From contig VBDU01000080.1 of the NCBI GenBank assembly GCA_005883625.1, positions 41,453 to 105,452 of the forward strand: 64,000 bases of DNA, read 5' to 3'. Below the pieces are notes generated by a model. It saw only the letters and a program-made list of their open reading frames with translations. It did no database searches and was not told the DNA's origin. Source of the stretch: Chloroflexota bacterium. GTDB lineage: Bacteria; Chloroflexota; Limnocylindria; P2-11E. Below, one piece after another: positions 14,767 through 63,718 of the stretch (the stretch's first letter is position 1; every line of letters begins with the position of its first letter). The translations under genes and the position numbers were made by a program.

Positions 14767-14988
14767 ATGGGCGGAACGGCTCCCGGTCGCTGTAGCGATT
14801 GCGGGAACGATGCGTACATCCAGCTGGCGGGTGAGGCAGAGATGCTCTGCGCCCACTGCTACGGCAAGCGCATGGGCATCGCTCCGTCGCCCGGGCGCAA
14901 GGGCGGCGAGGCTGCCCCCAAGCCGACCACCGCGAGGGAAGCGGCTTCGCCGGCGCTGCGACGCCTCAGCCGGAGGTCTTCGCTCTAG
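14767..14988 (+). CDS. Small zinc-ribbon protein (CxxC...CxxC), divergent from imuA and sharing its LexA-box region
   Basis: MGGTAPGRCSDCGNDAYIQLAGEAEMLCAHCYGKRMG...; 73 aa. No strong ribosome-binding site. Confidence 0.4.
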   Translation: MGGTAPGRCSDCGNDAYIQLAGEAEMLCAHCYGKRMGIAPSPGRKGGEAAPKPTTAREAASPALRRLSRRSSL

Positions 14989-16328
14989 GAGCTCGCCCCG
15001 CGCGCGACCGCGTGCGGGCGCGTCGCGGCCATGGCCTCCCTGAGCGCGGTTACGCGAAGCGCGGCGTACCCGGCGAGCAGCGTCACGAGGACACCGCCCG
15101 CGAGGAATGCGTTGTTGATGCCGGCGAACGTCCCCACCGATCCGAGCAGCATCTGGCCGAGCGGCATGAAGCCCATGAAGACCATCGTGTTCACGCTCAT
15201 GACCCGCCCGCGGATCGCGTCGGGCGTCCGGGTCTGCATAAGGGTGTTCGCCATCCCGAGGTAGACCATCACCGCGAGGCTCGTGAGTCCCACGAAGACC
15301 ATCGCGCCGACGACCGAATGCTGGGCGCCGAAGAACATAAGAAGTACCCCGTGCGCGAGGGCGGCGCCCACGAGGAGCGCCCCGCGACGCCGCCAGGCGC
15401 CGAGCGACGCGGTGATGAGGGCACCGACGAGCGCCCCGCCCCCCGAGGCCGCGAGCAGCAATGAGAGCTCGAGCGCGCCGACGCCGAGGAACTGCGCCTC
15501 CGCGGGCAGGAGCTGGATGTAGGGCCGAGTGAAGAGCGCGGTCGCGACGCTGAGCACGACGACCCAGCGGAGGACCGGATCGCCGCGGATGAACGAGAGG
15601 CCCTCGCGGATCGATTCGAGCAGCGGACGGCGAACGCTTGCGTCGACGGGCTGCGGCCGCATCAGGAAGAGGGCGACCACGATCGCGAGATACGAGACGG
15701 CGTTGAGGAGCATGAGCCCGCCGACACCGAACGGGATGATGAGGACGCCGCCGAGCAGCGGGCCGACGAGCGTGGCGCCGTTGAACGCGGCCGAGTTGAG
15801 GCCGATGGCGCTCATGAGCTCGCGGTCGGAGACGAGGCGCGGGACCATCGCCTGACGGCTCGGCGCGTCGAACGAGAAGATGATCGAGTTCATCGCGCTC
15901 AACAGGACGATCTCCACGATGTTGATGTGCTCGGAGATCGTGAGCGCGGCGAGGATCGCGGCGACGATCGCGGCACTCGTCTGCGTCACGAGGAGCAGCC
16001 GCCGCCGGTCCGCGCGGTCGGCCACGGCGCCGCCGAAGAGCCCGAACGCGAGCCCTGGAACCGCCCGCGAAAGGCCGACGAGTCCGAGATAGAAAGGAGC
16101 CAGGTGCGGGACGCCATCCTTGATCGCGAGCTGCACGACGAGCCAGCCGAGACCGAACTGCTGCATCCACGTCCCGATGTTCGAGACGACGAGCCCGATC
16201 CAGAAGAGACGGAAGTCGCGGTATTCGAGCGCCGCGAGCGCCGAGGTGCGTCCTGGTTCGGCTGCGGCGGCCTCATCGAGGCCTTCCGTCTCGAGGGCCG
16301 GAGCGAGGCGCTCCTTCTGTGTCGCCAT
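14985..16328 (-). CDS. MFS transporter (EntS/DHA3-like exporter)
   Basis: 12-TM pattern, N-terminal FRLFWIGLVVSNIGTWMQ motif. Confidence 0.85.
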   Translation of the reverse strand: MATQKERLAPALETEGLDEAAAAEPGRTSALAALEYRDFRLFWIGLVVSNIGTWMQQFGLGWLVVQLAIKDGVPHLAPFYLGLVGLSRAVPGLAFGLFGGAVADRADRRRLLLVTQTSAAIVAAILAALTISEHINIVEIVLLSAMNSIIFSFDAPSRQAMVPRLVSDRELMSAIGLNSAAFNGATLVGPLLGGVLIIPFGVGGLMLLNAVSYLAIVVALFLMRPQPVDASVRRPLLESIREGLSFIRGDPVLRWVVVLSVATALFTRPYIQLLPAEAQFLGVGALELSLLLAASGGGALVGALITASLGAWRRRGALLVGAALAHGVLLMFFGAQHSVVGAMVFVGLTSLAVMVYLGMANTLMQTRTPDAIRGRVMSVNTMVFMGFMPLGQMLLGSVGTFAGINNAFLAGGVLVTLLAGYAALRVTALREAMAATRPHAVARGASS

Positions 16329-16393
16329 GCGGTGGAATCAGTGTGCGGGGTCGCGCGATGAGGCGCGTTGCAGCCGGGTCACTCCTCGTTCTG

Positions 16394-16486
16394 CGAGAGT
16401 GCATGGGAGTCGAACCCACCACGGAACGCAAGCGCCCCGTCAACGGTTTTGAAGACCGAGGAGCTCACCGGAGCCCCCGCACTCTC
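16394..16486 (-). tRNA. selC: tRNA-Sec (selC), anticodon UCA
   Basis: 8-bp acceptor GAGAGTGC/GCACTCTC, anticodon loop CUUCAAA, long variable arm, T-arm GGGTTCGACTCCC, discriminator G. Strong similarity to E. coli selC in the D/anticodon and T arms. Confidence 0.7.
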
Positions 16487-16537
16487 GGAAAGGATCCTGG
16501 ATGGGCAGTCTACGGGCGGGTCTAGTCTGTTCGGCGC

Positions 16538-17733
16538 ATGGCTCCCCCGGTCCTCTACGCGAAGAGCGGCGATGTCCACGTCGCGTACACGGTCCGCGGC
16601 AGCGGGCCGGATCTGGTCTGGTGCCCCGGCAGCCTCTCGCACCAGGAGCTCTGGCCGCAGATACCGGAATTCGCCAGGCTCGTCGACGGGCCCGCGCAAT
16701 TCGCGCGGGTGCTCTTCTTCGACAAGCGCGGCACCGGCATGTCAGACCGGCCGGCGGGCATCCCGACCCTCGAGGAGCGCATCGACGACATCCGCGCGGT
16801 CATGGATGCCGCACAGAGCGGGCGCGCCCACATCTTCGGCGTCTCGGAGGGCGGCTCCATGGCGTGCCTCTTCGCGGCGACGTATCCAGAGCGAACGCGC
16901 TCGCTGATCCTCTACGGCACGCGCCCGCGCTGGACCCGCGCGCCCGACTATCCGTGGGGGCCCACCGCCGAGGAGGCCGAGGCGAGCCTCCAGGGGACGA
17001 TCGCGGACGGCTTCAAGACGGACTACACCAGCGACTTCATGCGGAAGTGGCTCGGGCCGGGGCTGCGCGACGATGCGGAATTCATCGAGCACTTCGAGCG
17101 CCTGCGGCGGATGTCGAAGATCTCGCGTCGCGCATACCCGACGCCCGGGTCGTCGAGGTCCCGGGGGAGGGTCACCTCGTGGGCGAGAGCGGTCCCGAGA
17201 TCATGAGGATCCTGAGGGAATGGGTGACCGAGGTCACCGAGACGATCCCGAGCAAGCGTTTCCTCGCGACCATCCTGTTCGTCGATCTGGTGCGCTCGAC
17301 TGAGCGCGTGGCCCAGCTGGGCGACGGCGCCTGGCGAGACCTCCTCGCGCGCTACTACGCCGAGGCGCGCCGCGAGCTGGCGATCTACGGCGGGGTGGAG
17401 GTCGACACGGCCGGCGACGGGCTGCTCGCGCACTTCGACGGACCGGGACGCGCAGTCAAGTGCGCGGGCGCGATCGAGCGGGCCGTCCGCGGGCTCGGTC
17501 TCGAGGCGCGCGCGGGCGTGCACACGGGCGAAGTGGAGCGGGACCAGGGCGCGCTGCGCGGCATCGCGGTGCACACCGCGGCGCGCATCGCCGCCCAGGC
17601 GGGCGCGAACGAGATCCTGGTCTCGAGCACGGTACGCGACCTCGTCGCCGGATCCGGCCTCGTGTTCCTCGATCGCGGCGCCCACGAGCTGAAGGGGATC
17701 GAAGGCCCCAGGCAGCTGCTCGCGGTCGGTTAG
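16538..17733 (+). CDS. Alpha/beta hydrolase fused to a class III adenylate/guanylate cyclase domain; frameshift near 17105-17115
   Basis: GVSEGGS nucleophile elbow in ORF 16538..17206. The hydrolase catalytic-His region (VPGEGHLV) and the cyclase domain are in ORF 16501..17733, the +1 frame. Confidence 0.7.
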
Positions 17734-17760: not shown

Positions 17761-18708
17761 TCAGGGAAGCAGCGTCGGCAGCACCCGCGCGAAGCCATCC
17801 GCGAGCGGACGCGCGCGCCAGCCCAGCTCCCGCTCCGCCTTCGCGCTCGAGGCGAGGTAGGTCACGCCGGCGAGGACGCGCAGGCTCTCCGCGTCTTGAC
17901 CGAGCACCGCCGTCATGCTGGCGGCGAGGCGCAGCAGCGGCGGCGGCACCGCCAGGCGCGGCGCGGGGATGCCGCAGACCCGCTCGGCGATCCGTAGCGC
18001 CTCAACGAGCGTGTGCGGCGGACCGGCGATGACGTAGCTCTCGCCGGCGCGACCGCGCTCCATCGCGCGGACGTGGCCGTCGACCGTGTCGTCGACATAA
18101 CCCCAGCAGTACGCGCTCCCGCCCGGGACCGCGGGCAAGCGGCGACGCACGTAGGCGTCGAGGACGGGACGCATCGGGCTGTGGTCGCCCTCGCCGTAGA
18201 TGACGCCGGGCTGGACGATCACGAGCGGCAGGCCGCTCCGCATGAGCGGCTCCGCGACCTCGTAGTGCGCGACGTGCTTCGTCCGGTCGTACTCGCTCGC
18301 GAACGGGCCGCTCGCGCGAGAGGTCTCGTCGACGAGGCGGCCGCGCGTGTCGCCGAAGACCGCGACCGTGCTCGTGTACACGCCCTTCGCGACGCCGAGC
18401 TCGCGCATGGCCTCGAGGACGTTCCGCGTGCCCTCAACGTTGATGCGGTAGGCCTGATCGCGGCCGCGCGCGCCGATCCGGTACCACGCGGCGCAGTGGA
18501 AGAGGCGCTCGGCGCCGGCCATCGCGCGGCGGACGCTCTCGCGGTCCGTGACGTCGCCCAGCTCGCAGCGCACGCCGAGCACGCGCAGCTCGGTGGCGCC
18601 GTCGGGGTCGCGCACGAGCGCGACGACCGTATCGCCGGCGTCGCGGAGACGGCGAACGAGCCGTCCGCCAAGGAATCCGGTCGCGCCCGTGACGAAGTAT
18701 CGCGTCGT
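17761..18708 (-). CDS. NAD-dependent epimerase/dehydratase (SDR); no canonical start codon upstream of the Rossmann motif
   Basis: The frame reads NRTTTRYFVTGATGFLGGRLVRRL after an in-frame TAG at 18718-18720. Only ACC/ACG/CGA codons precede the motif. Confidence 0.7.
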   Translation of the reverse strand, partial: TTRYFVTGATGFLGGRLVRRLRDAGDTVVALVRDPDGATELRVLGVRCELGDVTDRESVRRAMAGAERLFHCAAWYRIGARGRDQAYRINVEGTRNVLEAMRELGVAKGVYTSTVAVFGDTRGRLVDETSRASGPFASEYDRTKHVAHYEVAEPLMRSGLPLVIVQPGVIYGEGDHSPMRPVLDAYVRRRLPAVPGGSAYCWGYVDDTVDGHVRAMERGRAGESYVIAGPPHTLVEALRIAERVCGIPAPRLAVPPPLLRLAASMTAVLGQDAESLRVLAGVTYLASSAKAERELGWRARPLADGFARVLPTLLP

Positions 18709-18733
18709 GGTTCGGTTCTACCATCCCGCCGCT

Positions 18734-20599
18734 ATGCGCAGCGAAGACACCGAACGGAGCGAACGGCTTCGGAGCGTCGATCTCGCGTCCGGTCTGGACC
18801 GCGTCGCGCTCGCCCGGCTCGCGGCTTACATGACGCCGCTCGCCTTCGCGGCGGGAGAGCTGCTCTGCGCCGAGGGCGACGCCGCCGACGCGCTCTTCAT
18901 CGTCGTCCGCGGCCGCTTTTCCGTGCACGTGGGCCGCGACGGCGACGAGCGTCGCGTGAACACGATCGGGCCCGGGCACTACGTCGGCGAGCTCGCGCTC
19001 CTCGTCGACGAGCCGCGCACCGCGACGATCCGCGCCGAGACCGCGGCCGAGGTGCTCCGCCTCGAGCGCCAGCAGTTCCTCGAGCTGCTCGATCGAGACG
19101 CACCCGCCGCGAAAGCGGTCGCGGCGACGCTCGCGCGGCGGCTGCAGCGGCGCGATGCGGGCGTCGGGCGCGACGAAGGCGAACCGGTCCCGCTGCGCAT
19201 TCCCGCGCAGGCGGCGCGACCGGGGCGCCGCCCCGCGGCGAAGGTCGCCGGACTCGTCCTCGCGGGCGCGCTGATCGTCGCGGCGTTCGTGCCGTTCGTC
19301 GACCTCGCGCAATGGAAATTCGCCCTCCTCCTCCTCGCCGCCGTGACCCTGTGGGTCACCGAGCCGGTGCCGAACGTCGTCGTCTCGCTGGGCCTCGTCA
19401 TCACGTGGATCCTCTCGGGCATCGTGCCGCCGTACGCCACCCTCACGGGCTTCGCGTCGATGAGCTGGGTCTTCGTCGTCTCGGTGCTCGGGATCGCGAG
19501 CGCGGTCGCGCGATCGGGTCTCCTCCTGCGCGTCGGCCTCCTGCTCATCGAGCGGGTGCCCGCGCGGGTCGGCTGGCAGTCGGCGGCGTTCATCGGCACC
19601 GGCATCATCCTCACGCCGCTGCTGCCGCTCGCGCTCGCGCGCGCGGCGATCACCGGCCCGCTCGCCGAAGGCGTCGCCGACGCGCTGCGGCTGCGCGAGC
19701 GAAGCCCGGCGTCGGCCGTCATCGGCCTCTCCGCCTGGATCGGCTCCGGTCCGTTCATCTTCCTGTTCCTGAACGGCTCCCCGGTCTGTCTGCTGGGCTG
19801 GAGCCTCATGCCGCTCGCGGCGCAGGATCGCTTCACCTGGCTCCAGTGGTTCGTGGCGGCCGCACCGCTCGGCGTGATCCTCGCCGCAGGGTGTTTCGGG
19901 GCGCTTCGCGTCTTCCACCGCTCGGAGGCGATCGTGGGTCCTTCGCGTGGCCCGCTCCGGCTCCAGCAGGCGGTCCTCGGGCCTCTCTCGCGGCGCGAGC
20001 TCGCGCTCTGCGCGATCGTCGCGCTCATGATCGTCGGCTGGATCCTCGCGCCGCGGCTCCTCATCCATCCCGGACTCGTCGCGCTCGCCGCGTTCATCGC
20101 GATGATGGTCGTGACCGGCGCGTCGAACCTCGGCACGATCGACTGGGACTACCTCGTCTTCTACGGGGTCGCGCTCACGGTCGCGAACATCGCGGAGGGG
20201 CTACGGCTCGACCGCATCGTCGGCGAGAACGCCGCCCTCGCACTCGCTCAGGCGGGCATCGGCGGGCCGGCGTTCGTGCTCCTGGCGGGCGTCCTCACGA
20301 TCGCCGCCCGGTCGCTCCTCGCCGCCGACCAGGCGATCCTCCTGCTGTCCCTGGCGCTCATCCCGGTCGCGACCGCCGTCGGCGTGCACCCGTGGCTCGC
20401 CGTCGTCGCCATCCTCGCGCTCGGCCTCAGCTGGCACGTGCCCGCGCAGTCACCCGAGTACCTGGTCGCCTACGGCGCGACCCACGGCCGCCTCTACACG
20501 CACGGCGACGCACGCCGGATGGCGTTCGCCTACGACGCGATCGCGCTCGCCGGTCTCGCGGTCTGCCTTCCGTACTGGAGCGCGCTCGGACTCCTGTAG
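18734..20599 (+). CDS. Cyclic-nucleotide-binding domain fused to a multi-TM anion/citrate-type permease (SLC13/ArsB-like)
   Basis: cNMP motif GELALLVDEPRTATIRA followed by about 12 TM helices. The ORF-track start at 18548 overlaps the divergent epimerase gene; the real start is ATG 18734. Confidence 0.75.
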   Translation: MRSEDTERSERLRSVDLASGLDRVALARLAAYMTPLAFAAGELLCAEGDAADALFIVVRGRFSVHVGRDGDERRVNTIGPGHYVGELALLVDEPRTATIRAETAAEVLRLERQQFLELLDRDAPAAKAVAATLARRLQRRDAGVGRDEGEPVPLRIPAQAARPGRRPAAKVAGLVLAGALIVAAFVPFVDLAQWKFALLLLAAVTLWVTEPVPNVVVSLGLVITWILSGIVPPYATLTGFASMSWVFVVSVLGIASAVARSGLLLRVGLLLIERVPARVGWQSAAFIGTGIILTPLLPLALARAAITGPLAEGVADALRLRERSPASAVIGLSAWIGSGPFIFLFLNGSPVCLLGWSLMPLAAQDRFTWLQWFVAAAPLGVILAAGCFGALRVFHRSEAIVGPSRGPLRLQQAVLGPLSRRELALCAIVALMIVGWILAPRLLIHPGLVALAAFIAMMVVTGASNLGTIDWDYLVFYGVALTVANIAEGLRLDRIVGENAALALAQAGIGGPAFVLLAGVLTIAARSLLAADQAILLLSLALIPVATAVGVHPWLAVVAILALGLSWHVPAQSPEYLVAYGATHGRLYTHGDARRMAFAYDAIALAGLAVCLPYWSALGLL

Positions 20600-20618
20600 G
20601 TCGCGGTCGCGAGTCGCG

Positions 20619-21347
20619 CTACAGACGCGTCTCGACGAGCAGGATCTCCGCGCCGTCCGGCCCCGCCGCGATCGCGATCTCGTCCTCGTCGCGGATCTTC
20701 GCCGCGCCCCCCTCGTCGAGCTCGGGACCAGCGAGCGAGCCGTGCACGACGAAGAGATAAGCGCCGAAGCCGCGCCGCAAGCGGTGACGCGCCGTGCGGC
20801 CCGCGTCGAGGAGGCCCGCGTACACCGCGGCGTCCTGGTGGACCGTCACGGCGTCGGTGGCGCGCGGCGCGTCCGGGGCGCCGTAGCCGTCGGCCGGGAC
20901 GAGGACCGCCTTCAAGACGTTGCGCCGCGACTCCTCGCTGAAGGAGCGCTGCTCGATGCTCGGCTCGAGCCCGCGGCGTGACGGGATGATCCACATCTGG
21001 ATGAACCGCATGGGCTCGATCTTCGACCCGTTGCGCTCGGAGTGCTGCATCCCCGAGCCGAGCGTCGCGCGCTGGACCGAGCCGGGCGGCAGGATGCCGC
21101 CGTTCCCGCGCGAGTCGGCGTGCTCGAAGGTGCCCTCCGCGACGTAGGTGATGCCCTCGATGTCGCGGTGGGGATGCATGGGCCACGCGGCGCCCGGCAC
21201 GAGCGTGTCGTCGTTGAACACGCGAAGGTCGCCGAAGCCCATGTTCGCTTCGTCCCAGTACTGGTCGAAGCTGAAGTGCCAGTACGCGCTGAACCAGCCG
21301 CCTTCGGCGTGGAACAACGACCCCCGCGGTCGCGCCTGGATGGTCAT
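20619..21347 (-). CDS. Pirin-family cupin protein
   Basis: HPHRDIEGITYV...WIIPS motifs. Start ATG at 21347 (MTIQARP). Confidence 0.85.
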   Translation of the reverse strand: MTIQARPRGSLFHAEGGWFSAYWHFSFDQYWDEANMGFGDLRVFNDDTLVPGAAWPMHPHRDIEGITYVAEGTFEHADSRGNGGILPPGSVQRATLGSGMQHSERNGSKIEPMRFIQMWIIPSRRGLEPSIEQRSFSEESRRNVLKAVLVPADGYGAPDAPRATDAVTVHQDAAVYAGLLDAGRTARHRLRRGFGAYLFVVHGSLAGPELDEGGAAKIRDEDEIAIAAGPDGAEILLVETRL

Positions 21348-53639: not shown

Positions 53640-54487
53640 CCACTGACGCCGACAAACTGGCGGCCGAAGGTCGCCTGAACAGGGGGGTTGCAGGGGGCCG
53701 GCAAATACTCATCACCAACGACGACGGGATCGAATCGGACGCGCTCGGCCCCCTCACCGACGCGCTCGCCGCGGTCGGCGACGTGGACATCATCGCCCCC
53801 GAGCGGAACTGGAGCGGCGCGAGCCACAGCATCACGCTGTACCGCCCGCTCCGAGTGCGTTCGACCCAGCTCCGTACCGGGCAGAACGCGTACATGACCG
53901 ACGGGTCGCCGACGGACTGCGTCCGTCTTGGCGTGCTCGGCTTCCTCAAGCGCAAACCCGACCTCGTCGTGAGCGGCGTCAACCGCGGCTCGAACCTGGG
54001 CGACGACATCACCTATTCCGGCACGGTCGCCGCGGCGATGGAGGGGCTGCTCTCCGGGCTCCCCTCGATCGCGATCTCGATCGCCGCGTTCGGCGCGAAC
54101 ATCGACTTCGCTCCGTCGGCGGCGTTCGCCGCGCTGCTGGCGCGGAACATCTTCGACAAGGGGTTCGCGCCGGACGCGCTGCTGAACGTGAACGTTCCGG
54201 CCCTGCCGCGCGACGCGATCGCGGGCGTCGAGGTGACGCGCCTCGGTAAGCGCACCTATCGCGACCAGCTCGTGGAGCGTCTCGACCCCTACGGCAATCC
54301 GTATTACTGGGTCGGCGGGCCCGCGGTGAGCGCCGAGGCCGAGGAGGGGACCGACGTCGCGGCCCTCCGCGCGGGCAAGATCAGCGTGACGCCGATCTAC
54401 CTCGACCTCACGAATCACTCGCTCATCGCGGGGCTCGCGAAGTGGGACTGGGGCTGGTCGGGTCCGGTGGAGGTCGCGGCGGACTAG
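53636..54487 (+). CDS. surE: 5'/3'-nucleotidase SurE
   Basis: ILITNDDGIESDAL N-terminal metal-binding motif. Confidence 0.85.
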   Translation: MTTDADKLAAEGRLNRGVAGGRQILITNDDGIESDALGPLTDALAAVGDVDIIAPERNWSGASHSITLYRPLRVRSTQLRTGQNAYMTDGSPTDCVRLGVLGFLKRKPDLVVSGVNRGSNLGDDITYSGTVAAAMEGLLSGLPSIAISIAAFGANIDFAPSAAFAALLARNIFDKGFAPDALLNVNVPALPRDAIAGVEVTRLGKRTYRDQLVERLDPYGNPYYWVGGPAVSAEAEEGTDVAALRAGKISVTPIYLDLTNHSLIAGLAKWDWGWSGPVEVAAD

Positions 54488-54710
54488 GGCTCGGCGTCGA
54501 CGCCGAAGCGCTCGGCGGCGACGCCGTCGCGGACGAGCTTCGTGCACAGCCCCGGCACGCAGCCGTTCGTGCGGCAGCGCTCGGTGCACAGGTGCCGGCG
54601 CGCGCAGGCGAGGCAGAAGGCCGCCGGCCGATCGAAGTCGGTGCAGGCGACGCACCGCGCATGGCGTGCCGGGTCGAGCGCGCCGCCGCAGGCGCCGCAG
54701 CGGAGCGCGC
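54484..54710 (-). CDS. Candidate Cys-rich small ORF (11 Cys in about 75 aa; three CxxC pairs) with no canonical start codon
   Basis: Frame +2 after the ABC ATPase stop: LSALRCGACGGALDPARHARCVACTDFDRPAAFCLACARRHLCTERCRTNGCVPGLC... It fills the otherwise unexplained 223-bp gap between convergent genes. Confidence 0.25.
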
Positions 54711-55487
54711 TCAGGGCAGCGCTCCCGGGACGACGACCGGGCGGCCGCCGCGGCGTTCGACCTCGAGGCCCGCGCCGAACACCCGTCCGACGACCTCCGG
54801 CGTGAGCGCGTCGAGCGGCGGCGCATCGACGACGACGCGACCGTGTTCGATGACGACGATCCGCGTCGCGGCGCTCGCCGCGAGGTTCAGATCGTGCAGG
54901 ACGGCGACGACCGCGAGGCCCCGCGTGCGTGCGAGCCGGCGGACGAGCGCGAGCGTCGCCAGCTGGTGGGCGGGGTCCAGGTGCGCGGTCGGCTCGTCGA
55001 GGAGCAGGACGTCTCCCTCCTGGGCGAGCGCCATGGCGAGGACGGCCCGCTGACGCTCGCCGCCCGAGATCTCCGTGATCGTCCGGTCCGCGAGCGCCAG
55101 GAGCGCGAGCTCGTCGAGCGCGCGATCGACTGCCGCGCGGTCGACGGCGGAGGGGCGACCGAACAGCGACAGCCGGGCGGTACGGCCCAGGGCGACGACC
55201 TCCCGCACGGTGAACGGGAAGAGGGTCTCGAATACCTGCGGGACGACCGCGATCCGTCGTGCGATCTCGCGCCGCGCGAGCGACCGGAGGTCGCGGCCGT
55301 CGAGGCGGACATCACCGGACCGCGGGACGAGGAGTCCCGCCAGCGCGCGCAGCAGCGTCGACTTCCCGGCTCCGTTCGGGCCGACCAGGCACACGACCTC
55401 GCCCGCGCCGACGCAGACGTCGCAGTCGTGGAGCACTTCGCGGTCGCGGTATCCGGCGACGACCGCGCGTGCCGCGAGCGCGGTCAT
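54711..55487 (-). CDS. Iron-siderophore/cobalamin-type ABC transporter ATP-binding protein (FecE/BtuD-like)
   Basis: Walker A GPNGAGKST, signature ISGGERQR, Walker B LLLDEP. Confidence 0.85.
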   Translation of the reverse strand: MTALAARAVVAGYRDREVLHDCDVCVGAGEVVCLVGPNGAGKSTLLRALAGLLVPRSGDVRLDGRDLRSLARREIARRIAVVPQVFETLFPFTVREVVALGRTARLSLFGRPSAVDRAAVDRALDELALLALADRTITEISGGERQRAVLAMALAQEGDVLLLDEPTAHLDPAHQLATLALVRRLARTRGLAVVAVLHDLNLAASAATRIVVIEHGRVVVDAPPLDALTPEVVGRVFGAGLEVERRGGRPVVVPGALP

Positions 55488-56482
55488 ACCAGCATCCGCC
55501 GTCGCTGGCGGAGCAGGAGACCGAGGAAGAACGGCCCACCGACAAGCCCGGTGACGACACCGACGGGCAGCTCGGCAGGCGAGAGGACCGTCCGCGCCCC
55601 GATGTCGGCGAGGACGAGCGTCACCGCGCCAAGGAGAAAGCTCGCGGGGACGAGTCGCGCGTGCGCGGCGCCGAGGACCGGCCGGATCGCGTGGGGCACG
55701 ACGAGGCCGACGAAACCGATCACCCCGGCGAGCGCGACCGCGGCGCCCGTGAGCAGCGCGGTGACCGCGAGGATCGCCGCGGTCGAGCGCTCGAGATCCA
55801 CGCCGAGGGTCGCGGCGGTCTCCTCGCCCAGGGCGAACGCGTCGAGACGTCGCGCGAGCGCGATGGCCGCGGCGGTGGCGGCGATGACGATCGCCGCGGC
55901 CACGGCGAGCTCGGTGCCATCGAGTATCGCGACGCCGCCGAGCAGCCACCCGAGGACCGCGCGAAGGCGTAGGACGATGCGATCGCTCGCGACGAGGAGG
56001 AGCGTGACGATCGCCGCGGCGAACGACGAGAGGATGACGCCGGCGAGGAGCACCGTGAGGACGCTCGTACGGCCACCGAGTGACGAGAGTCGCCAGACGA
56101 TCGCCGCCGATGCGAGTGCGCCGAAGAACGCGGCGACCGGAAGAAGCGCGGGCTCCGACGACGCTCCAAGCGCGATCGCGGCGACGGCGCACAGGGAGCC
56201 CCCTGCCGATGTCCCGGTCACGTACGGATCGGCGAGCGGGTTCCGCAAGAGCCCCTGAAGGAGCGCGCCCGCCACCGCGAGTGCGCCGCCGACGATCGCT
56301 GCTCCGAGAACGCGCGGGAGCCGAAGGTCGCGCACGATCGTCGCGTTCGCGGCATCGCCGTTGCCCCAGAGGGCGTTCCACACGTCGCCGGGCGCGATGG
56401 GCACCGCGCCGACGAGGATGCCCGCGAGCACGCTCGCCACGAGGGCGACCGCGAGCGCCACGAGGACGAACGCTGTCCTCAT
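55484..56482 (-). CDS. FecCD-family ABC permease (BtuC-like)
   Basis: About 9 TM helices, FecCD consensus. ATGA overlap with cobC. Confidence 0.85.
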   Translation of the reverse strand: MRTAFVLVALAVALVASVLAGILVGAVPIAPGDVWNALWGNGDAANATIVRDLRLPRVLGAAIVGGALAVAGALLQGLLRNPLADPYVTGTSAGGSLCAVAAIALGASSEPALLPVAAFFGALASAAIVWRLSSLGGRTSVLTVLLAGVILSSFAAAIVTLLLVASDRIVLRLRAVLGWLLGGVAILDGTELAVAAAIVIAATAAAIALARRLDAFALGEETAATLGVDLERSTAAILAVTALLTGAAVALAGVIGFVGLVVPHAIRPVLGAAHARLVPASFLLGAVTLVLADIGARTVLSPAELPVGVVTGLVGGPFFLGLLLRQRRRMLV

Positions 56483-57021
56483 CGCGGCGCCGGCGCGACG
56501 TCGAGCTCGACGACGCTCAGCTGCGCGGGCGCGAGGTCGATCGGGAGGCACGTGCCTTCGAGCAGCGCACGCGCCACGAACGCGTGGGTCACGAGGATCG
56601 TGTCGCCTTCGCGATCGCGCAGCTCCTCCCGCAGCGCGGTCGCGCGAGCGCGGCAGTCGCTCCAGCTCTCTCCCTCGGGCCAGCCCGCCGGGACTCCGCC
56701 GGACGCGAGGGTCGCGCCGAGGTCGGGCCAGCGGCGCGCCAGCTCCGCGAACGACAGCCCCTCGGCCGCGCCGAAATCGATCTCCCGAAGGCGCTCGTCG
56801 ACCCAGAAGGGGCCGCCGCGAGCGATCAGCGCGGCCGTCTCGACCGCGCGGCGCAGCGGGCTGGTACGCACCAACGCGCCGCCGGCGATGGACGCGAGCC
56901 GAGACCCGAGCGCCGTCGCATCCCTCCGGCCGGCGCTCGTGAGCGGCACGTCGGTGCGGCCGCAGTATCGCCGGCCCGTCCAGGCGGTGCGCGCGTGCCG
57001 CACGACGTAGAGCCGGGTCAC
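56479..57021 (-). CDS. cobC: Histidine-phosphatase-family alpha-ribazole phosphatase
   Basis: RHARTAW catalytic motif. Located in the cobalamin operon. Confidence 0.7.
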   Translation of the reverse strand: MTRLYVVRHARTAWTGRRYCGRTDVPLTSAGRRDATALGSRLASIAGGALVRTSPLRRAVETAALIARGGPFWVDERLREIDFGAAEGLSFAELARRWPDLGATLASGGVPAGWPEGESWSDCRARATALREELRDREGDTILVTHAFVARALLEGTCLPIDLAPAQLSVVELDVAPAPR

Positions 57022-57525
57022 GCGCGCGCCTTCAGTGCCAGCGCGACCCCGGCGACGATGAGCGTCACCGTCTCGGCCTCCTTTGCGACGGCCTGATTGA
57101 TCCGCCCGAGCTCGTCGCGGAATCGGCGGCCCCCGGCGCTCGCCGGCACGAGGCCGTGGCCGACCTCGTCGCTCACGACGATCACCGGCGCATCTCGCCG
57201 CCGGAGCGCCGCCGCGGCCCGTTCCCACGCGGCCCCGGGATCGGCGCCGTCCTCGAGCGATGCGGCGACCCAGAGCGTGAGCGAGTCGAGAAGGAGGACG
57301 TGATCGCCCACGGCGGCGGCGAGCGTGACCGCGATCTCGCGCTCGGCATCGAGCGTCTGCCAGGCCTGCGGCCGCCGGCGGCGGTGCGCCGCGATGCGCA
57401 TGTCGAGCTCCGGGTCGCCCGGCCACGCGGTCGCGACGAACGTCACGCGGTCACCACCCAGCGTGCGCGCGCGCTCGAGCGCGAACGCGCTCTTCCCGCT
57501 CGCCGTGCCGCCAAGGACGAGATGA
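57018..57525 (-). CDS. cobU: Adenosylcobinamide kinase/guanylyltransferase CobU; P-loop N-terminus is in a different frame from the body (frameshift in a GCGCGCGC run near 57462-57475)
   Basis: HLVLGGTASGKSAFALERA in frame +2 ends at a TGA. The frame of the body reads RTLGGDRVTFVATAWPGD... Confidence 0.65.
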
Positions 57526-57528
57526 AGC

Positions 57529-59004
57529 TCAGCCAGGTGTGGTCAGGCCGGTCGCGCGCAGCAGCGCCGCGAGGTCGACCGCTCCGCGGAACCAGCGCGC
57601 GACCTCGCCGTACGGATCGGGCGGGAGCGCGCGGGGCTGGAACGTGAGGCCGCGACGCCTCGCGAGCGTGCCGAGGATCGATTCGCGCACGCGCTCGACG
57701 CCGAACAACCCATGCACGTAGGTGCCGAGGATTCGTCCGTCGGCGCTCACCGCGCCGTCGGTCACACGTTCGCCGTCCGGCCGCACGAGCTCGGCGAACG
57801 GCGCGGCACCGTCGCGCTCGGTCTCGCCGACATGAAGCTCGTACCCGGCGAGGTCCGTCTCCGCGAGCCCCGCGAAGGCGCCGCCGCTCCGGACGCGTCC
57901 GGTGACCGGAACGGTCCGCTTCGGTCCAGCGAACGTCGTCCGTACCGGCAGGAGCCCGAGCCCGCGCGCCTCGCCTGGGCTGCCATCGACGCCGGAGGGG
58001 TCCGCGAGGGTCCGGCCGAGCATCTGGAAGCCTCCACAGATCCCGATCAGCGGCACGCCGGCATCGGCGAGCGCGACGACGCGCGGGCCGAGGCCGCTCG
58101 CGCGAAGCCACTCGAGATCGGCGAGCGTCGATTTGCTTCCCGGAAGGACGACGAGGTCCGGAGCTCCGAGCGCCGCGGGTTCGCGGACGTAGCGAACGCC
58201 AGCGCCGGCGGCGGCGAGCGCGGAGAGGTCGTCGAAGTTGCTGATCCGCGGGTAGCGGACGACGGCGACGTCGAGCGGCCCACCGTGCGCCGGCGCGTCC
58301 AGCGAGAGCGAGTCCTCGGGCGGCACCGGCAGGTCCTCGCGATAGGGCAGGACGCCAAGCACCGGCAGGCCGCTCCGCCGCCGAAGCGCGCGCACGCCGG
58401 AGGCGAAGAGCGCCCGATCGCCGCGGAACTTGTTCACGAGGAGCCCTCTGACGAGCGCGCGGTCGGAGGGACGGAGCAGCGCGAGGGTGCCGAGGACCTG
58501 CGCGAAGACGCCGCCACGCTCGATGTCGGCGACGAGCAACACCGCCGCATCGGCTGCTTTCGCCACGCGCATGTTCGCGAGATCGCTGGCCCGCAGATTG
58601 ATCTCCGCCGGGCTGCCCGCGCCCTCGATGACGATCACCTCGAACTCGGCCCGCAGCTCGCGCAGCGCCGCAGCGATCACCGGCCAGAGCTCGTTCCGCC
58701 GCGTCCAGTGATCGCGCGCGTGGACCGTTCCGCGCGCGCGGCCGAGCACGACGAGCTGGCTCCGCTCGTCGCCCTCCGGCTTGAGCAGGATCGGGTTCAT
58801 CGCGGCACGCGGGGTCACGCCCGCCGCCTCGGCCTGCGCCGCCTGCGCCCGCCCGATCTCCTCCCCGGCGGGCGTGACCGCGGCGTTCAGCGACATGTTC
58901 TGCGCCTTGAAGGGCGCGACGCGCCAGCCCTCGTCGTGGAGCACGCGACAGAGCGCGGTCGCGATGACGCTCTTGCCGACCGACGATGCCGTCCCCTGCA
59001 CCAT
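57529..59004 (-). CDS. cobQ: Cobyric acid synthase
   Basis: MVQGTASSVGKS P-loop N-terminus; C-terminal GATase domain (GICGGFQMLG). Confidence 0.85.
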   Translation of the reverse strand: MVQGTASSVGKSVIATALCRVLHDEGWRVAPFKAQNMSLNAAVTPAGEEIGRAQAAQAEAAGVTPRAAMNPILLKPEGDERSQLVVLGRARGTVHARDHWTRRNELWPVIAAALRELRAEFEVIVIEGAGSPAEINLRASDLANMRVAKAADAAVLLVADIERGGVFAQVLGTLALLRPSDRALVRGLLVNKFRGDRALFASGVRALRRRSGLPVLGVLPYREDLPVPPEDSLSLDAPAHGGPLDVAVVRYPRISNFDDLSALAAAGAGVRYVREPAALGAPDLVVLPGSKSTLADLEWLRASGLGPRVVALADAGVPLIGICGGFQMLGRTLADPSGVDGSPGEARGLGLLPVRTTFAGPKRTVPVTGRVRSGGAFAGLAETDLAGYELHVGETERDGAAPFAELVRPDGERVTDGAVSADGRILGTYVHGLFGVERVRESILGTLARRRGLTFQPRALPPDPYGEVARWFRGAVDLAALLRATGLTTPG

Positions 59005-59024
59005 CACGCAGGCGGCGAGCGCCC

Positions 59025-60045
59025 TCACGAGCGCGCCTCCGCGCGCAGGCCGGCGAGCGCCGCGACGAGGACCTCCTGCTCCCCGGGGGGCCGGACCGCG
59101 ACGCGTAGATGCTCCGGCAGACCGAAGCTCGCGCACCAGCGCACCGCGATGCGCCGGTGGGCCAGAGCGCGAACGATGCCCTCGGCACGAGACCCCGCAT
59201 GCGCGAGGACGAACGGCGCCTCGCTCGGGACCGCCTCGAGACCGTGCGCCGCGAGCGCGCGCACGAGGCGCTCGCGCCACGCGGCGATCGTCAGCCGCGC
59301 GTCCGCTCCGAGATCCCATGAGGAGACCGCGGCCGCGGCGCACGCGTGCGCGCCTGGGCTCCAGGGATCGCGATGCGCGCGCAGCGAGGCGATGCGGTCG
59401 CGCCGCGCGACCACGTAGCCCACCCGCAGACCGGGCGCGGCAAGGATCTTCGTGAGCGAACGGACGAGCATGGCGTCGCCACCCGCGATGAGGTCGGCCG
59501 CCGGGACCGACTCCCCCGCGAACGGCGCGAACGACTGGTCGATCACAAGGCGCGTCCGTGGCGGCAGCGCGGCGAGGATCGCACGCATCTCCTCGGGCGC
59601 GAGCCGCCGTCCCGTCGGGTTGTTCGGATCGCAGACGAACGCGAGGGCCCACGACCGCGACGAGAGCGCCGCGGCGAACCGCTCCACCGGCGGCACGAAG
59701 GCCGGCGCCTCGGCGCGGATCTCGGCCGTCGCGCCGCCGCGCAGCGCGACGAGGCGCGCGTACTCCCCATAGGTCGGCCCGAGCACGAGCGCTCCGCCGG
59801 CGGCCCCAGCGACGATGAGCCGGAGGGCCTCGGTCGCCCCCGCGGTGAGGAGGACGCACCCTTCCTCGACGCCGGCGTCCGCCGCGAGGTGCCGTTCGGC
59901 TTCGCGCGGATCGAGGTCGGCGTAGGCGCCGTAACCGGCGCCCGCAACGGCGTCCCGTACCGCCTGGGGGGTCCCGCACGGGTTCGGGCTCGCGCTGAGC
60001 TCGAGCCAGCCGCGCGGCGCGCCACCGTGCGCCGCCGGGACGGTC
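59025..60045 (-). CDS. cobD: L-threonine-O-3-phosphate decarboxylase (class I/II aminotransferase fold)
   Basis: PLP-lysine region LTKILAAPGLRVGY. GTGA overlap with cbiB. Confidence 0.8.
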
Positions 60046-60952
60046 ACGATCGCACCCAGCGGTAGCTCGCGAGAACGCCGACGGTCACGAGCGCCGCGGC
60101 CACCGCCACGAGGCGCCGGGCGCGCGCGATGTCGGCGGGTCGTGGGTCGCGATCGCCGCCGAAGGCGTAGTGATCGCCCTTCGCGAGGCGCACGCCGAGC
60201 GCGCCGGCCGCCGCGGCCATCGGCCAGCCCGCGTTCGGGCTCGCTGCCCGCGCGTGCTCCCGCACCGCGACTCGCCCCGCCCGCGTGGCGGCGTCGCGCG
60301 TGATCGCCGCGCCGGCGACGAGCGCGGCGGCGCTGAGCCGTGCGGGGAGGAGGTTGAGAAGATCGTCGAGCCGCGCGGCCGCCTTCCCGACGTGCTCGTA
60401 CCGACCGTGGTAGCCGACCATGGCGTCCGCGGTGTTCACCGCGCGATACGCGAGCGCCCCGGGAAGACCGGCGACGCGATAGAAGACGAGCGGCGCGACG
60501 TACGAGTCGCAGAGGTTCTCCGCCAGCGACTCGATGGCCGCGGACGCGATCTCCTGGGCGGAGAGGTCGCTCGTCGGCCGACTCACGAGCGCCACGCATT
60601 CGCGCCGCGCGGTCGCGAGATCGTCGGCGAGCAGGGCGCGTTCGACGCGCCGTCCCGCCGCGAGGAGCGCGCGCAGCGCGAACGAGCTCTTGAGCGTCCA
60701 CGCGGTCGCGAGCGCGCGGAGCGGCCCCGGTCGCAGCCTGCCGATCGCGACGCCGGCGAGCGCCGCGAACGTCGCCGGCGCGAGCGCGAGGAGCACACCG
60801 AACGACGTCGCGCGCGCCGGGTCCGCGGGCGCGAGACGCTCGAGGCCGCTGACGAGCCGTCCCATGCCAACGACCGGATGGAGCCGCGCGGGTGGCTCGC
60901 CGAAGGCAAGGTCGACGCCGAGAGCGATGGACCACGCGGCCGCGGCGCTCAC
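60044..60952 (-). CDS. cbiB: Adenosylcobinamide-phosphate synthase
   Basis: CbiB/CobD membrane-protein consensus. 4-nt overlap with the cobS stop. Confidence 0.8.
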   Translation of the reverse strand: MSAAAAWSIALGVDLAFGEPPARLHPVVGMGRLVSGLERLAPADPARATSFGVLLALAPATFAALAGVAIGRLRPGPLRALATAWTLKSSFALRALLAAGRRVERALLADDLATARRECVALVSRPTSDLSAQEIASAAIESLAENLCDSYVAPLVFYRVAGLPGALAYRAVNTADAMVGYHGRYEHVGKAAARLDDLLNLLPARLSAAALVAGAAITRDAATRAGRVAVREHARAASPNAGWPMAAAAGALGVRLAKGDHYAFGGDRDPRPADIARARRLVAVAAALVTVGVLASYRWVRS

Positions 60953-61683
60953 CGCGCGGCGAGGAACACGAGCTGCGCCGCGAACGACAGCTCGCCGGCC
61001 GCCCCGCAGACATCGCCGGTCACGCCCCCCAGACGCGAGCGCGCGAAGAGGCCGACGGCCAGCGCGACGGCCGCGGCGGCCCCGATCAGGGCGAGACCGG
61101 ATCCGAGCAGAAGCGGCAGGACGACCAGCGCGACCAGGGCGGTCGCAATGACGAGGTCGACGGGGCCGGCGGCGGCACGGAACGTCGCCGCAAGTCCCTC
61201 GCTGCGGGCGGCCGGGAACGCGACGAGCGCGACCGCCATGGCCCAGCGGGAGCTCGCGCAACCGGCGATCAGAGCGGGCGCGCGGATCGACCGCGGAATG
61301 GCGGCGAGCGAGGCGACCTCGAGCAGCAGCACGAGCGTCACCGCCGCGACCGCGAACGCCCCCGTATGGCTATCGCGCATGACCTCGAGCCGCCGCGCTC
61401 GGCCACCGCTCGCGAACAGCCCGTCGGCCGAGTCCGCGAGCCCGTCCAGATGCAGACCGCCCGAGAGGAGCGCGAGGAGACCGACGTCGAGCACCGACGC
61501 GACGGTCGGCGGGAGGGGCACGGTCGCGACCGCATCGAACGCGGCGACGATCGCCCCGAGGAGCGCTCCGACGAGCGGGAAGTACGCGACGGAGCGACCC
61601 AGCGTCGACGCTCTCGCGGTGTTGAGCGGCGACGGAATGACCGTGAGCAGACCGAGCGCGGCGAAGGGGGCGACGACCCGCAC
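60949..61683 (-). CDS. cobS: Cobalamin 5'-phosphate synthase
   Basis: Polytopic membrane protein with LDGLADSADGLF motif. Confidence 0.85.
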   Translation of the reverse strand: MRVVAPFAALGLLTVIPSPLNTARASTLGRSVAYFPLVGALLGAIVAAFDAVATVPLPPTVASVLDVGLLALLSGGLHLDGLADSADGLFASGGRARRLEVMRDSHTGAFAVAAVTLVLLLEVASLAAIPRSIRAPALIAGCASSRWAMAVALVAFPAARSEGLAATFRAAAGPVDLVIATALVALVVLPLLLGSGLALIGAAAAVALAVGLFARSRLGGVTGDVCGAAGELSFAAQLVFLAAR

Positions 61684-62244
61684 TCAGAACTCGACGCCGC
61701 GTTGGGCGACGATCCCCTGCTGGAACGGATGCTTCACCAGACGCATCTCGGTCACGAGATCGGCGCGGTCGACGATCTCCGCGGGGGCGTCCCGGCCGGT
61801 GAGGATGAGGTGCTCCTTCTCCGGCTTGGCCGCGACGAGGGCCAGGACCTGGTCGAGCGTCACGAGGTCCGCCTTGATCGCGCCCAGGATCTCGTCGAGG
61901 ACGACGACATCGAACTCACCGGAGGTGATCGCCTGTTCGGCCTCGACGAGCCCGGCCTGCGCCGCGGCCACGTGCTCCTCCATCGGGATCCGAGGATCGC
62001 GGAGGCGCTCGATCGTGAAGCCGCGCCCAGCGCGCACGATCTCGAAGAAGGGGGCCAGCGGCTTCACCGCCTCGAGCTCGCCCGTCTTCCAGCTGCCCTT
62101 GATGAACTGGATCACCCGGACGCGCATCCGGTTCCCGGCCGCGCGCAGGGCCAGGCCCATCGCCGCCGTCGTCTTCCCCTTACCGTTGCCCGTGAAGACG
62201 ATCACGAGGCCCTTCCGCTTTTTCTCGCGCGGCGCCTCCGTCAC
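61684..62244 (-). CDS. cobO: Cob(I)yrinic acid a,c-diamide adenosyltransferase
   Basis: GLVIVFTGNGKGKTTAA P-loop. GTGA overlap with the substrate-binding-protein stop. Confidence 0.85.
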   Translation of the reverse strand: MTEAPREKKRKGLVIVFTGNGKGKTTAAMGLALRAAGNRMRVRVIQFIKGSWKTGELEAVKPLAPFFEIVRAGRGFTIERLRDPRIPMEEHVAAAQAGLVEAEQAITSGEFDVVVLDEILGAIKADLVTLDQVLALVAAKPEKEHLILTGRDAPAEIVDRADLVTEMRLVKHPFQQGIVAQRGVEF

Positions 62245-63182
62245 GGCGTGCCGAACAGCTCGGGGTGGATGATCTTCGCGTAGGCCTCGAACCCGAGCAC
62301 GAGGCGCGGCCCGGGCCGGCTCACGAGGTCGTCGTCGATCGGATAGATCGCCCGGTTGCGGACCGCGGGGATCCCCGACCAGCCCGGCCGCGCGACCACC
62401 TGCTCGGGCGTCGCGCCGAAGCGGAAGTCCGCGAGCACCACGATCTCCGGGCCGCGAGCGACGACCTGCTCCGCCGAGAGCTGCGGGAACTTCGTGGGCG
62501 CGTCGGCCGCGACGTTCACGCCTCCGCACGTGGTGATGATCGAATCGATGAAGTTGCGCGGTCCCGCGACGAAGATCCGCGCCGGGTCCGTCGAGTCGAC
62601 CTCGTGCAGGACGCGCGGCTGCGAGGTCGCCTGCTTCGCCTTCGTGCCGATCGCGTCGATCCGAGCGCGCATGTCGGCGACGACCTGCATCGCCTTCTGC
62701 TCGCGATCGAACATCTGGCCGACCGCGCGGATGTTCTTGTACACGCCCTCGACGTCGGTCGGATCGAAGATGAAGAGCGGCTGCCCGAGCTGGTCGAGCT
62801 GCGCCGGCAGATTCCCCGACGTGATCGCCAGGATGAGGTCGGGCTTGAGGGCGACGATCTTCTCCGGGCTCGTGCGGACGCCGCCGAGCTTCGGTAGGGA
62901 CTTCGCTTCTGCGGGGAAATCGGAGAAGTCATCGGTGGCGACGATCCGGTCGCCGGCGCCAAGGGCGAACACGATCTCCGTGGCGCTCGGCGCGAACGAG
63001 ACCACGCGGGCGGGCGCGGCCGCGAGCGTGAGGGTCTTCCCGCGGTCGTCGGTGACCGAGAGGGGGTAATGGGCGGCGCTCGCGGTCGGGCTCGCGGGCG
63101 CGGCGGCAGGCGCGGCACAGGCACCGAGGACGAAGAGGAGGACCGCGAGCAACGCGAAGATCCGACGTGACATCTGGCGCAC
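62241..63182 (-). CDS. Periplasmic substrate-binding lipoprotein of a cobalamin/siderophore-type ABC transporter (BtuF/FecB-like)
   Basis: GTG start, lipobox LFVLGAC. Class III substrate-binding-protein fold motifs (RVVSFAPSATEIVFALG). Confidence 0.8.
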   Translation of the reverse strand: MRQMSRRIFALLAVLLFVLGACAAPAAAPASPTASAAHYPLSVTDDRGKTLTLAAAPARVVSFAPSATEIVFALGAGDRIVATDDFSDFPAEAKSLPKLGGVRTSPEKIVALKPDLILAITSGNLPAQLDQLGQPLFIFDPTDVEGVYKNIRAVGQMFDREQKAMQVVADMRARIDAIGTKAKQATSQPRVLHEVDSTDPARIFVAGPRNFIDSIITTCGGVNVAADAPTKFPQLSAEQVVARGPEIVVLADFRFGATPEQVVARPGWSGIPAVRNRAIYPIDDDLVSRPGPRLVLGFEAYAKIIHPELFGTP

Positions 63183-63194
63183 CCCTTTCTCGCG

Positions 63195-63325
63195 AAGGTG
63201 TGTCGGCCGCGAGCGGGAGAGCCAGGCGACCCGAGTTCGGACCAGCGTCCGTCACGGTGGCGCGACCCTGCCGGAGTTGCACCGGCTTCGCTGGGACCCC
63301 GCGTATTCAATTGTCGGTCGGGGGC
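63195..63325 (-). ncRNA. Cobalamin (adenosylcobalamin) riboswitch in the leader of the operon
   Basis: RNA reads ...AGCGAAGCCGGUGCAACUCCGGCAGGGUCGCGCCACCGUGACGG...GGUCCGAAC...CGCCUGG. This matches the CCGGUG-AA-UCCGG and B12-box (GCCACUG-like) consensus. The ribosome-binding site AAAGGGG precedes the GTG start. Confidence 0.65.
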
Positions 63326-63369
63326 TCCGCCCCCAGGTCGAAGGGGGCTCTGCCCCCCTCGGACCCCCC
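63320..63369. repeat. Two tandem G/C hairpin repeats (GGGGGC-TCC-GCCCCC and GGGGGC-TCT-GCCCCCC, then TCGGACCCCCC) upstream of the riboswitch
   Basis: Same unit as 13965-13992. Confidence 0.6.
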
Positions 63370-63372
63370 GCC

Positions 63373-63642
63373 TTACGCGGGGACGTGCTCCGTGGTGTAC
63401 CGGACGCTATCGGCGAGATGCGCCCCGAACACGCGCTGGAGCGTCATGACGTGCGCGCAGAGACCGGAGGTCCTGAAGTGATCGCACTCGCAGGACCACT
63501 CATCCCCGTGCAGTGAGACGGCGTGCGTGCCGTTGTCGCCGCGAAAGGCGATATCGAAGCTCTTGAGGCTGATCCGCTCGGGCTCCTCGGCATACCGCTT
63601 CGCCTTCTCGATCTTGGAGATGAGGCTCGAGTACATGAGCAT
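63373..63642 (-). CDS. Small SWIM-type zinc-finger protein (89 aa); the longer 206-aa ORF-track form is probably an over-extension
   Basis: WSCECDHFRTSGLCAHV (CxCx..CxH). Confidence 0.45.
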   Translation of the reverse strand: MLMYSSLISKIEKAKRYAEEPERISLKSFDIAFRGDNGTHAVSLHGDEWSCECDHFRTSGLCAHVMTLQRVFGAHLADSVRYTTEHVPA

Positions 63643-63718
63643 CCTCCGCACCGATTCGTGTTCCGGCTCCGCGCCGGACGAGGCCACTATATGCCGCTCG
63701 CATATCCTTGGCCCGACC

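Follow-up and report, generated by a model that had tools for sequence, protein, structure and literature searches.

The closest described counterparts of the locus studied here are the late genes of the Salmonella cob operon (cobUST, cbiB, cbiP, cobD, cobC, and cobA), the btuFCD genes of E. coli, the adenosylcobalamin (AdoCbl) riboswitch class, and the CobU and CobP proteins of Salmonella enterica and Pseudomonas denitrificans (PF02283; PDB 1CBU, 1C9K). The window analyzed was a stretch of 64,000 nt on contig VBDU01000080.1 of a Chloroflexota bacterium. On its minus strand, from 63173 to 54711, ten co-directional genes encode the same enzymes for adenosylation, aminopropanol arm attachment and nucleotide-loop assembly, together with the same type II ATP-binding cassette (ABC) importer for corrinoids. 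Compared with the Salmonella and E. coli genes, those of the window appear fused into one riboswitch-led, translationally coupled operon, and cobT (lower-ligand activation) and the genes for corrin-ring synthesis are not in the operon, so that "salvage" versus "de novo" synthesis is not decidable from the window. The overall reading that we favor, with a probability of about 0.72, is a B12 operon behind an AdoCbl riboswitch, in which an unshifted cobU gene of 172 codons would start at CTG and be coupled to cobQ by re-initiation. The cobU gene and its proposed start are located as follows.

57018..57536, minus strand: cobU, adenosylcobinamide kinase/guanylyltransferase, intact with 172 codons in a single frame (PF02283, 160 bits; matches to the CobU/CobP structures in the PDB)
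57534..57536, minus strand: proposed cobU CTG start codon, in an 8-nt overlap with the cobQ stop (CTGGCTGA, 57536-57529)

A first-pass annotation of the region had placed the P-loop segment of cobU in a different frame from the remainder, with the shift inside a GCGCGCGC run, and had concluded that the gene was either a pseudogene by frameshift or the product of an assembly indel. No frame change was found. Three-frame translation of the minus strand between 57000 and 57660 gave one frame, TGA-PH-L-AELHLVLGGTASGKSAFALERARTLGGDRVTFVATAW...ALKARA-stop, which was unbroken across the run, and the P-loop segment HLVLGGTASGKSAFALERA shared this frame with the rest of CobU, reading (L/M)AELHLVLGGTASGKSAFALERARTLGGDRVTFVATAW...KARA*. 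The protein of 172 amino acids (aa) matched PF02283 in a single stretch that covered profile positions 2-168 of 168 (160.3 bits, cut-off 27), and it matched NCBIfam PRK05800 over positions 3-171 of 173; the score against the equivalog model NF004469 was 159.7 bits, marginally under the cut-off of 161. The P-loop GGTASGKS occupied residues 9-16, in frame with the remainder. Residues 6-169 were matched to the solved CobU/CobP structures, and the alignment was ungapped over the N-terminal half, through residues 20-35 where the shift had been alleged, so that homology was continuous in one frame. With the Salmonella and P. denitrificans enzymes the window protein shared a full-length match, the N-terminal GGTASGKS, an HRRRRP segment at about residue 51 and a similar length, whereas its gene would start with CTG instead of ATG, GTG, or TTG. 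By these matches, the product is a predicted adenosylcobinamide kinase/guanylyltransferase. No second copy of cobU was present in the 64-kb window.

That a frameshift or assembly indel in the GCGCGCGC run (57455-57480) separates the P-loop part of cobU from the rest was supported only by the mechanical list of open reading frames (ORFs), in which the gene began at GTG 57446 because only ATG, GTG, and TTG were accepted as starts. The continuous frame and the profile and structure alignments speak against it, and the same sequence was reproduced in 35 fetched contigs of different samples, sources and record-naming styles, which indicated that it was not an assembly error. A frameshift or indel in the GC run is thus excluded, and we regard it as next to impossible. 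The two overlapping genes could also be read by recoding, if ribosomes either shifted by +1 at the cobQ stop, which would yield a CobQ-CobU fusion, or read through the in-frame TGA at 57539-57537. The overlap of the cobQ and cobU frames and the occurrence of a tRNA-Sec gene in the window would fit such a mechanism, but relatives carry a plain ATG or GTG at exactly the same codon with the genes separate, and no slippery or prfB-like motif was found (CCU GGC UGA G). Moreover, the cobU frame ahead of the TGA corresponds to no more than cobQ read out of frame, and TGA is the stop codon throughout the operon. The plain starts of the relatives and the lack of a recoding signal rule out fusion, TGA read-through and selenocysteine insertion, and recoding of this kind is most improbable.

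As the first-pass annotation had correctly noted, no canonical start precedes the P-loop: there is no ATG, GTG, or TTG between the in-frame TGA (57539-57537) and the P-loop. The CTG at 57536-57534 is the only near-cognate codon in this interval. It sits 8 codons before the P-loop, which is the homologous start position of the CobU family; the nearest canonical ATG, GTG, or TTG lay 4-17 codons upstream of the P-loop in 106 of 110 homologous loci, most often 8-10. The 8-nt overlap with the stop of the upstream gene (NTGGCTGA) was conserved in relatives from the Limnocylindrales. If the CTG is read as Met, the predicted N-terminal peptide of CobU is (M)AELHLVLGGTASGK. A CobU of 172 aa has been annotated by NCBI from this codon in three metagenome-assembled genomes (MAGs) of the same cluster, and one of these proteins (P0122, TMG35855.1) matched the CobU of the window once the CTG was read as Met. 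The later codons GTG 57446 and ATG 57401, from which gene callers derive products of 142 and 127 aa, were ruled out as the functional start, as either would delete the P-loop.

The start base varied among near-identical soil contigs. It was C in the window and in contigs L054, L055, L131, L001, and L130; G (GTG) in L056 and L132; and A (ATG) in L057 and L124-L129. Among 2022 aligned positions from 44 near-identical contigs, it was one of three tri-allelic columns, the other two being window positions 56593 and 57550. In total, CTG was found in 35 fetched contigs from many samples (five fetched early and 30 with truncated calls). Four haplotypes, GTG+CTC, CTG+CTC, CTG+CTT, and ATG+GTC, occurred in one cluster of ~99% identity, and the flanking haplotypes suggest the allele order GTG/CTC, CTG/CTC, CTG/CTT. 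More distant CobU homologues begin with VPEL... or VAEL..., that is, with GTG. Judged from this comparison, the cobU CTG is a derived state that apparently arose via one G-to-C change from the GTG of the sister strains. A CTG start was also found independently in an unrelated Chloroflexota, a Chloroflexia MAG with 48% identity (L008, CAVZTA010000012.1), in which cobU (5983-6534) is an intact ORF of 183 codons; in L006 and L007, its closest relatives, the aligned codon is ATG, and GAGGG precedes the CTG of L008 by 7 nt.

Further variation was observed within the cluster. An E21D change (GAG to GAC at window position 57474, cobU codon 21; L124-L162) was found on CTG haplotypes, and the same change was present in the ATG-type protein P0128. 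In a neighbor-joining tree, the CTG alleles fell into two groups, one of which was nested among ATG contigs. The shared E21D and the split CTG groups suggest either recombination between the allele classes or poor resolution of the tree. In contig L057 (Ga0209761_1097022), which carries the ATG allele, a segment of 101 nt that codes for an M20-peptidase-like peptide (DMKGGLAAML...) stood at ~1061-1165 in place of 138 nt of cobU, with the breakpoint at the GCGCGC run. This was considered as a sign of cobU decay in the population and set aside, since the 1.5-kb metagenome contig is probably chimeric and six other ATG contigs were intact.

CobU catalyzes a guanylyltransferase step that is needed for nucleotide-loop assembly generally and not for salvage alone, and CobS, CobC, CbiB, and CobD have no purpose without it. 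The first-pass annotation, which had confined the consequence of a broken cobU to cobinamide salvage, was too narrow in this respect. The conservation of cobS, cobC, cbiB, and cobD beside the CTG allele favors a functional cobU, as these genes would otherwise be pointless; between the window and L001, the ratio of nonsynonymous to synonymous polymorphism (pN/pS) of the neighboring genes ranged from 0 to 0.39. For cobU, the pN/pS between the window and the GTG contig L056 was 0.18, within the range of the neighboring genes. The 172-codon ORF was uninterrupted in all 35 CTG contigs. The 31 N-terminal codons omitted by gene callers, which would be non-coding if translation started at GTG 57446, showed only one synonymous and one conservative change (E21D) across these 35 contigs. 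Diversity within the CTG class was 0.55% on average (1.1% at most) and 0.61% in the ATG class, and this similarity indicated that the CTG allele is not a one-off.

Three points count against translation of cobU from the CTG. No Shine-Dalgarno motif was found ahead of it. In E. coli reporters, initiation at CUG reached 1-2% of that at AUG (10.1101/063800), and CobU would be down ~50-100-fold compared with an ATG start if these figures transfer. The clade is shallow (divergence of 1.1% or less), so that ongoing selection is only weakly tested by intact ORFs and a low pN/pS. The same three points would fit a cobU at an early stage of loss, in which the change from GTG to CTG has effectively silenced the gene, the ORF is intact only through short time, and the strain relies on complete cobamides taken up via BtuFCD; the uptake system in the same operon is in keeping with this, and neither dN/dS nor ORF integrity can decide in so shallow a clade. 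However, CTG was the most often assembled allele with an internal diversity equal to that of the ATG class, neither frameshifts nor stops had accumulated in the 35 contigs, the 31 N-terminal codons showed only the two changes given above, the rest of the nucleotide-loop pathway was still conserved, and the independent CTG start in L008 is accompanied by a good Shine-Dalgarno motif. We therefore consider early loss unlikely. We favor instead a cobU that, coupled to cobQ, is most likely translated at a low level from the CTG. Stop and start codons that overlap or lie close together are known to support translational coupling, and re-initiation by the terminating ribosome is one of the models proposed (PMC12548453; PMC6728339). 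As the CTG lacks a Shine-Dalgarno motif and precedes the cobQ stop by 5 nt, ribosomes ending cobQ would most likely re-initiate at the CUG close by. Such coupled re-initiation would give a low but non-zero level of CobU.

The other genes of the operon were defined from the ORF list and a survey of start codons and identified by Pfam and NCBIfam scans. They are listed below in the order of transcription.

62241..63173, minus strand: btuF-like gene, corrinoid-binding protein with a lipoprotein-type signal (…LGAC) (PF01497, 125 bits; NCBIfam BtuF, 126.7 bits, under the equivalog cut-off)
61684..62244, minus strand: cobO/cobA, corrinoid adenosyltransferase (TIGR00708, 195 bits, cut-off 168; PF02572), GTGA overlap with btuF
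60949..61683, minus strand: cobS, adenosylcobinamide-GDP ribazoletransferase (TIGR00317, 140.8 bits, cut-off 110; PF02654)
60044..60952, minus strand: cbiB, adenosylcobinamide-phosphate synthase (TIGR00380, 211.5 bits, cut-off 166; PF03186)
59025..60047, minus strand: cobD-like pyridoxal phosphate enzyme of the threonine-phosphate decarboxylase family (TIGR01140, 200 bits, under the cut-off of 290; PF00155)
57529..59028, minus strand: cobQ, cobyric acid synthase, with an alternative start at ATG 59004 (NF001989, 576 bits, cut-off 273)
56479..57021, minus strand: cobC-like histidine phosphatase of the alpha-ribazole phosphatase family (PF00300, 135.6 bits; TIGR03162, 100 bits, under the cut-off)
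55484..56482, minus strand: BtuC/FecCD-type permease (PF01032, 292 bits)
54711..55487, minus strand: BtuD/FecE-type ABC ATPase (PF00005 and NCBIfam matches)

The gene list and order of the first-pass annotation were correct, with identities backed by Pfam and NCBIfam. Its statement that the genes overlap by 4 nt applied to seven of the nine junctions (NTGA); at the cobO/cobS junction the start follows the stop with zero gap, and cobQ and cobU overlap by 8 nt. The arrangement is consistent with one operon of ten genes, whose products would import corrinoids (BtuF/C/D-type), adenosylate them (CobO) and carry out the late steps of cobamide assembly (CobQ, CobD, CbiB, CobU, CobS, and CobC). The presence of PF01497, PF01032, and PF00005 proteins in one operon identified a BtuFCD-type (type II) ABC importer. 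The BtuF, BtuC, and BtuD equivalog models of NCBIfam matched these proteins, all under the equivalog cut-offs, and the specificity for corrinoids is predicted from gene context. The btuF-like product is named "cobalamin-binding protein" by NCBI (TMG35836.1), and BtuD is TMG35830.1. A convergent surE gene (SurE, TMG35829.1) marks the downstream limit of the operon. A consensus scan of 54300-63600 for promoters and terminators found no promoter-like sites and two terminator-like sites, which were at chance level and inside genes. The cobC-like phosphatase is deposited by NCBI as a protein of 249 aa from GTG 57228 (56479-57228, minus strand), which would overlap cobU by ~210 nt; a form of 180 aa from the GTGA-coupled GTG 57021, called by other sources, fits the Pfam domain, which begins at residue 4.

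The operon is ordinary in that it joins, in a standard combination, an AdoCbl riboswitch with late cob genes of the Salmonella type and an importer of the BtuFCD type; the same layout was found in related Chloroflexota, and the proteins already have named entries at NCBI. Among the species-representative genomes of GTDB, no relative was found above ~50% CobU identity, and the nearest belonged to the Limnocylindrales. Exact look-ups of the cobQ call and of protein P0002 returned zero matches.

The AdoCbl riboswitch class (RF01482) belongs to clan CL00101 together with RF00174 and includes the AdoCbl riboswitch of Thermoanaerobacter tengcongensis. The leader of the btuF-like gene shares with this class the core blocks GCGAAG-CCGGTG...CCGGCA, GTC.CGCCAC, and GTCGGGTCGCC, as well as a 3' hairpin that contains the ribosome-binding site (ACCUUCG.GAGAAAGG).

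63174..63316, minus strand: putative AdoCbl-class cobalamin riboswitch, aptamer and 3' P13-like hairpin containing the ribosome-binding site (RF01482, 47.5 bits; model R1, 57.4 bits)
63182..63188, minus strand: Shine-Dalgarno-like AAAGGGG, 8 nt ahead of ATG 63173 and within the 3' arm of the P13-like hairpin, base-paired in both the local fold and the Rfam alignment

When the whole window was scanned against Rfam at curated thresholds, the leader was not reported and only the tRNA-Sec gene was listed. In a permissive scan of 62900-63700 (801 nt), RF01482 matched over its full model at 63174-63314 (minus strand) with 47.5 bits (E=1.7e-7), which is 2.5 bits under the curated gathering threshold of 50 because the outer stems align poorly. 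The same operon position, ahead of a btuF-led B12 operon, carries RF01482 at 52-62 bits or RF00174 above threshold in the Limnocylindrales relatives. A covariance model (R1) was built from the riboswitches of eight relatives, all of which pass the Rfam thresholds, and it gave one strong match in the 64-kb window, at 63177-63316 (minus strand), with 57.4 bits and a rough E of ~1.7e-14. By both the RF01482 E-value and R1, the leader was significantly similar to bona fide members of the clan at the orthologous position. In the alignment of nine leaders, the core blocks were invariant, and RNAalifold found changes on both sides at 12 of 36 pairs, in what is a small sample; at several stem positions read from the alignment, eight sequences were uniform and the window carried a compensatory change on both sides. 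The helices were thus conserved through compensatory change within this small set. Furthermore, the leader was 100% identical to that of L001, while the coding genes except btuF each differed at several sites.

It is very unlikely that the leader matches by chance, or has decayed and no longer functions as a riboswitch. The sub-threshold score, its absence from the threshold scan, and minimum-free-energy folding of the leader and P13 region, which was uninformative with z-scores no better than shuffled sequence, point in this direction and count against our interpretation. Against them stand the RF01482 E-value, the score against threshold-passing relatives at the same place ahead of the same operon, the invariant core, the stems preserved by changes on both sides, and the identity with L001 where most coding genes vary. 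We conclude that the leader probably does belong to the cobalamin-riboswitch clan and that its outer stem is slightly atypical. The first-pass annotation had matched the leader to the cobalamin-riboswitch core and proposed a covariance-model search (cmsearch) as the check; by that check the leader remains formally sub-threshold, and as a clan member the match stands.

Kissing-loop translational control is known for the AdoCbl riboswitch class and requires complementary L5 and L13 loops. In the window, L5 (UCGCG) was perfectly complementary to L13 (CGCGA), and the two loops carried G and C where the relatives have C and A; this would fit kissing-loop control of translation. The AAAGGGG site had been described as lying directly before a GTG start of the first gene. 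However, GTG 63182 overlaps the site, and btuF more probably starts at ATG 63173, 8 nt past the GGGG; the NCBI call for the identical btuF in L001 (310 aa) corresponds to the ATG start. The broader claim of an operon for B12 transport and late assembly, controlled by a cobalamin riboswitch that probably acts on translation, was upheld. Ligand binding and on/off switching are predictions drawn solely from the family to which the leader belongs, which tempers this interpretation. When B12 is plentiful, ligand binding would probably keep the ribosome-binding site paired and the translation of btuF off, and through the chain of overlapping stops and starts this shut-off may also lower the translation of the downstream genes.

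Immediately ahead of the riboswitch, a GC-rich segment of 98 nt (63313-63410, minus strand) with two terminator-like hairpins was missing from the otherwise ~99.5% identical L001 (~4240). It carried the stop codon of a small upstream ORF (63373-63672) with a CxC...CxH SWIM-like motif and no match in Pfam, and the leader downstream of it was 100% identical.

Elsewhere in the window, a selenocysteine tRNA gene was located at 16393-16486 (minus strand; RF01852, 75.2 bits; anticodon TCA by ARAGORN). The adjacent ORF (14985-16328, minus strand) encodes a major facilitator superfamily transporter, and two ORFs at 16501-17733 and 18013-20760 (plus strand) gave no match in Pfam. The gene for a DnaE-type DNA polymerase III alpha subunit (6656-10114, minus strand) contained an in-frame TGA at 7580-7582; the PHP, NTPase, and finger domains were encoded in ORF 7580-10114, and the frame continued past the TGA into ORF 6656-7546, which encodes the C-terminal part. 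The interrupted gene could be a pseudogene, a sequencing error or a case of recoding.

The gene that was flagged as broken is intact, and metabolic reconstructions should therefore not score cobamide nucleotide-loop assembly as lost in this lineage of soil Chloroflexota, which is abundant and uncultured. An annotation trap is involved here. Gene callers that accept only ATG, GTG, and TTG cut CobU to 142 or 127 aa, with loss of the P-loop, on at least 30 sampled contigs, whereas the NCBI pipeline recovered 172 aa. Among the cluster members listed (15 of 32), truncated calls were found on ~80 contigs and canonical-start calls of 172 aa on ~7, and all 30 of the sampled contigs with truncated calls carried the CTG.

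The only mildly unusual feature of the locus is the segregating ATG/GTG/CTG start polymorphism, in which CTG predominates. The tri-allelic start base and the independent CTG in L008 led us to consider that selection on the dose of CobU may maintain the three alleles within one population of soil Chloroflexota, with CTG, read only via re-initiation after cobQ, as the favored low-expression setting; this is possible but rather doubtful. If true, it would be a natural example of the tuning of an enzyme level by start-codon choice inside a translationally coupled operon. In any case, ATG, GTG, and CTG at a single base provide a small, clean natural test case for non-canonical initiation and translational coupling. 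Natural tuning by the start codon has been described for the GTG start of lacI in E. coli 8178 (PMC11445065). As in cobU, the lacI start is a single-base variant that segregates among near-identical strains and has the potential to set protein dose. In contrast to lacI, the weak allele of cobU is CTG, which is far weaker than GTG in E. coli reporters.

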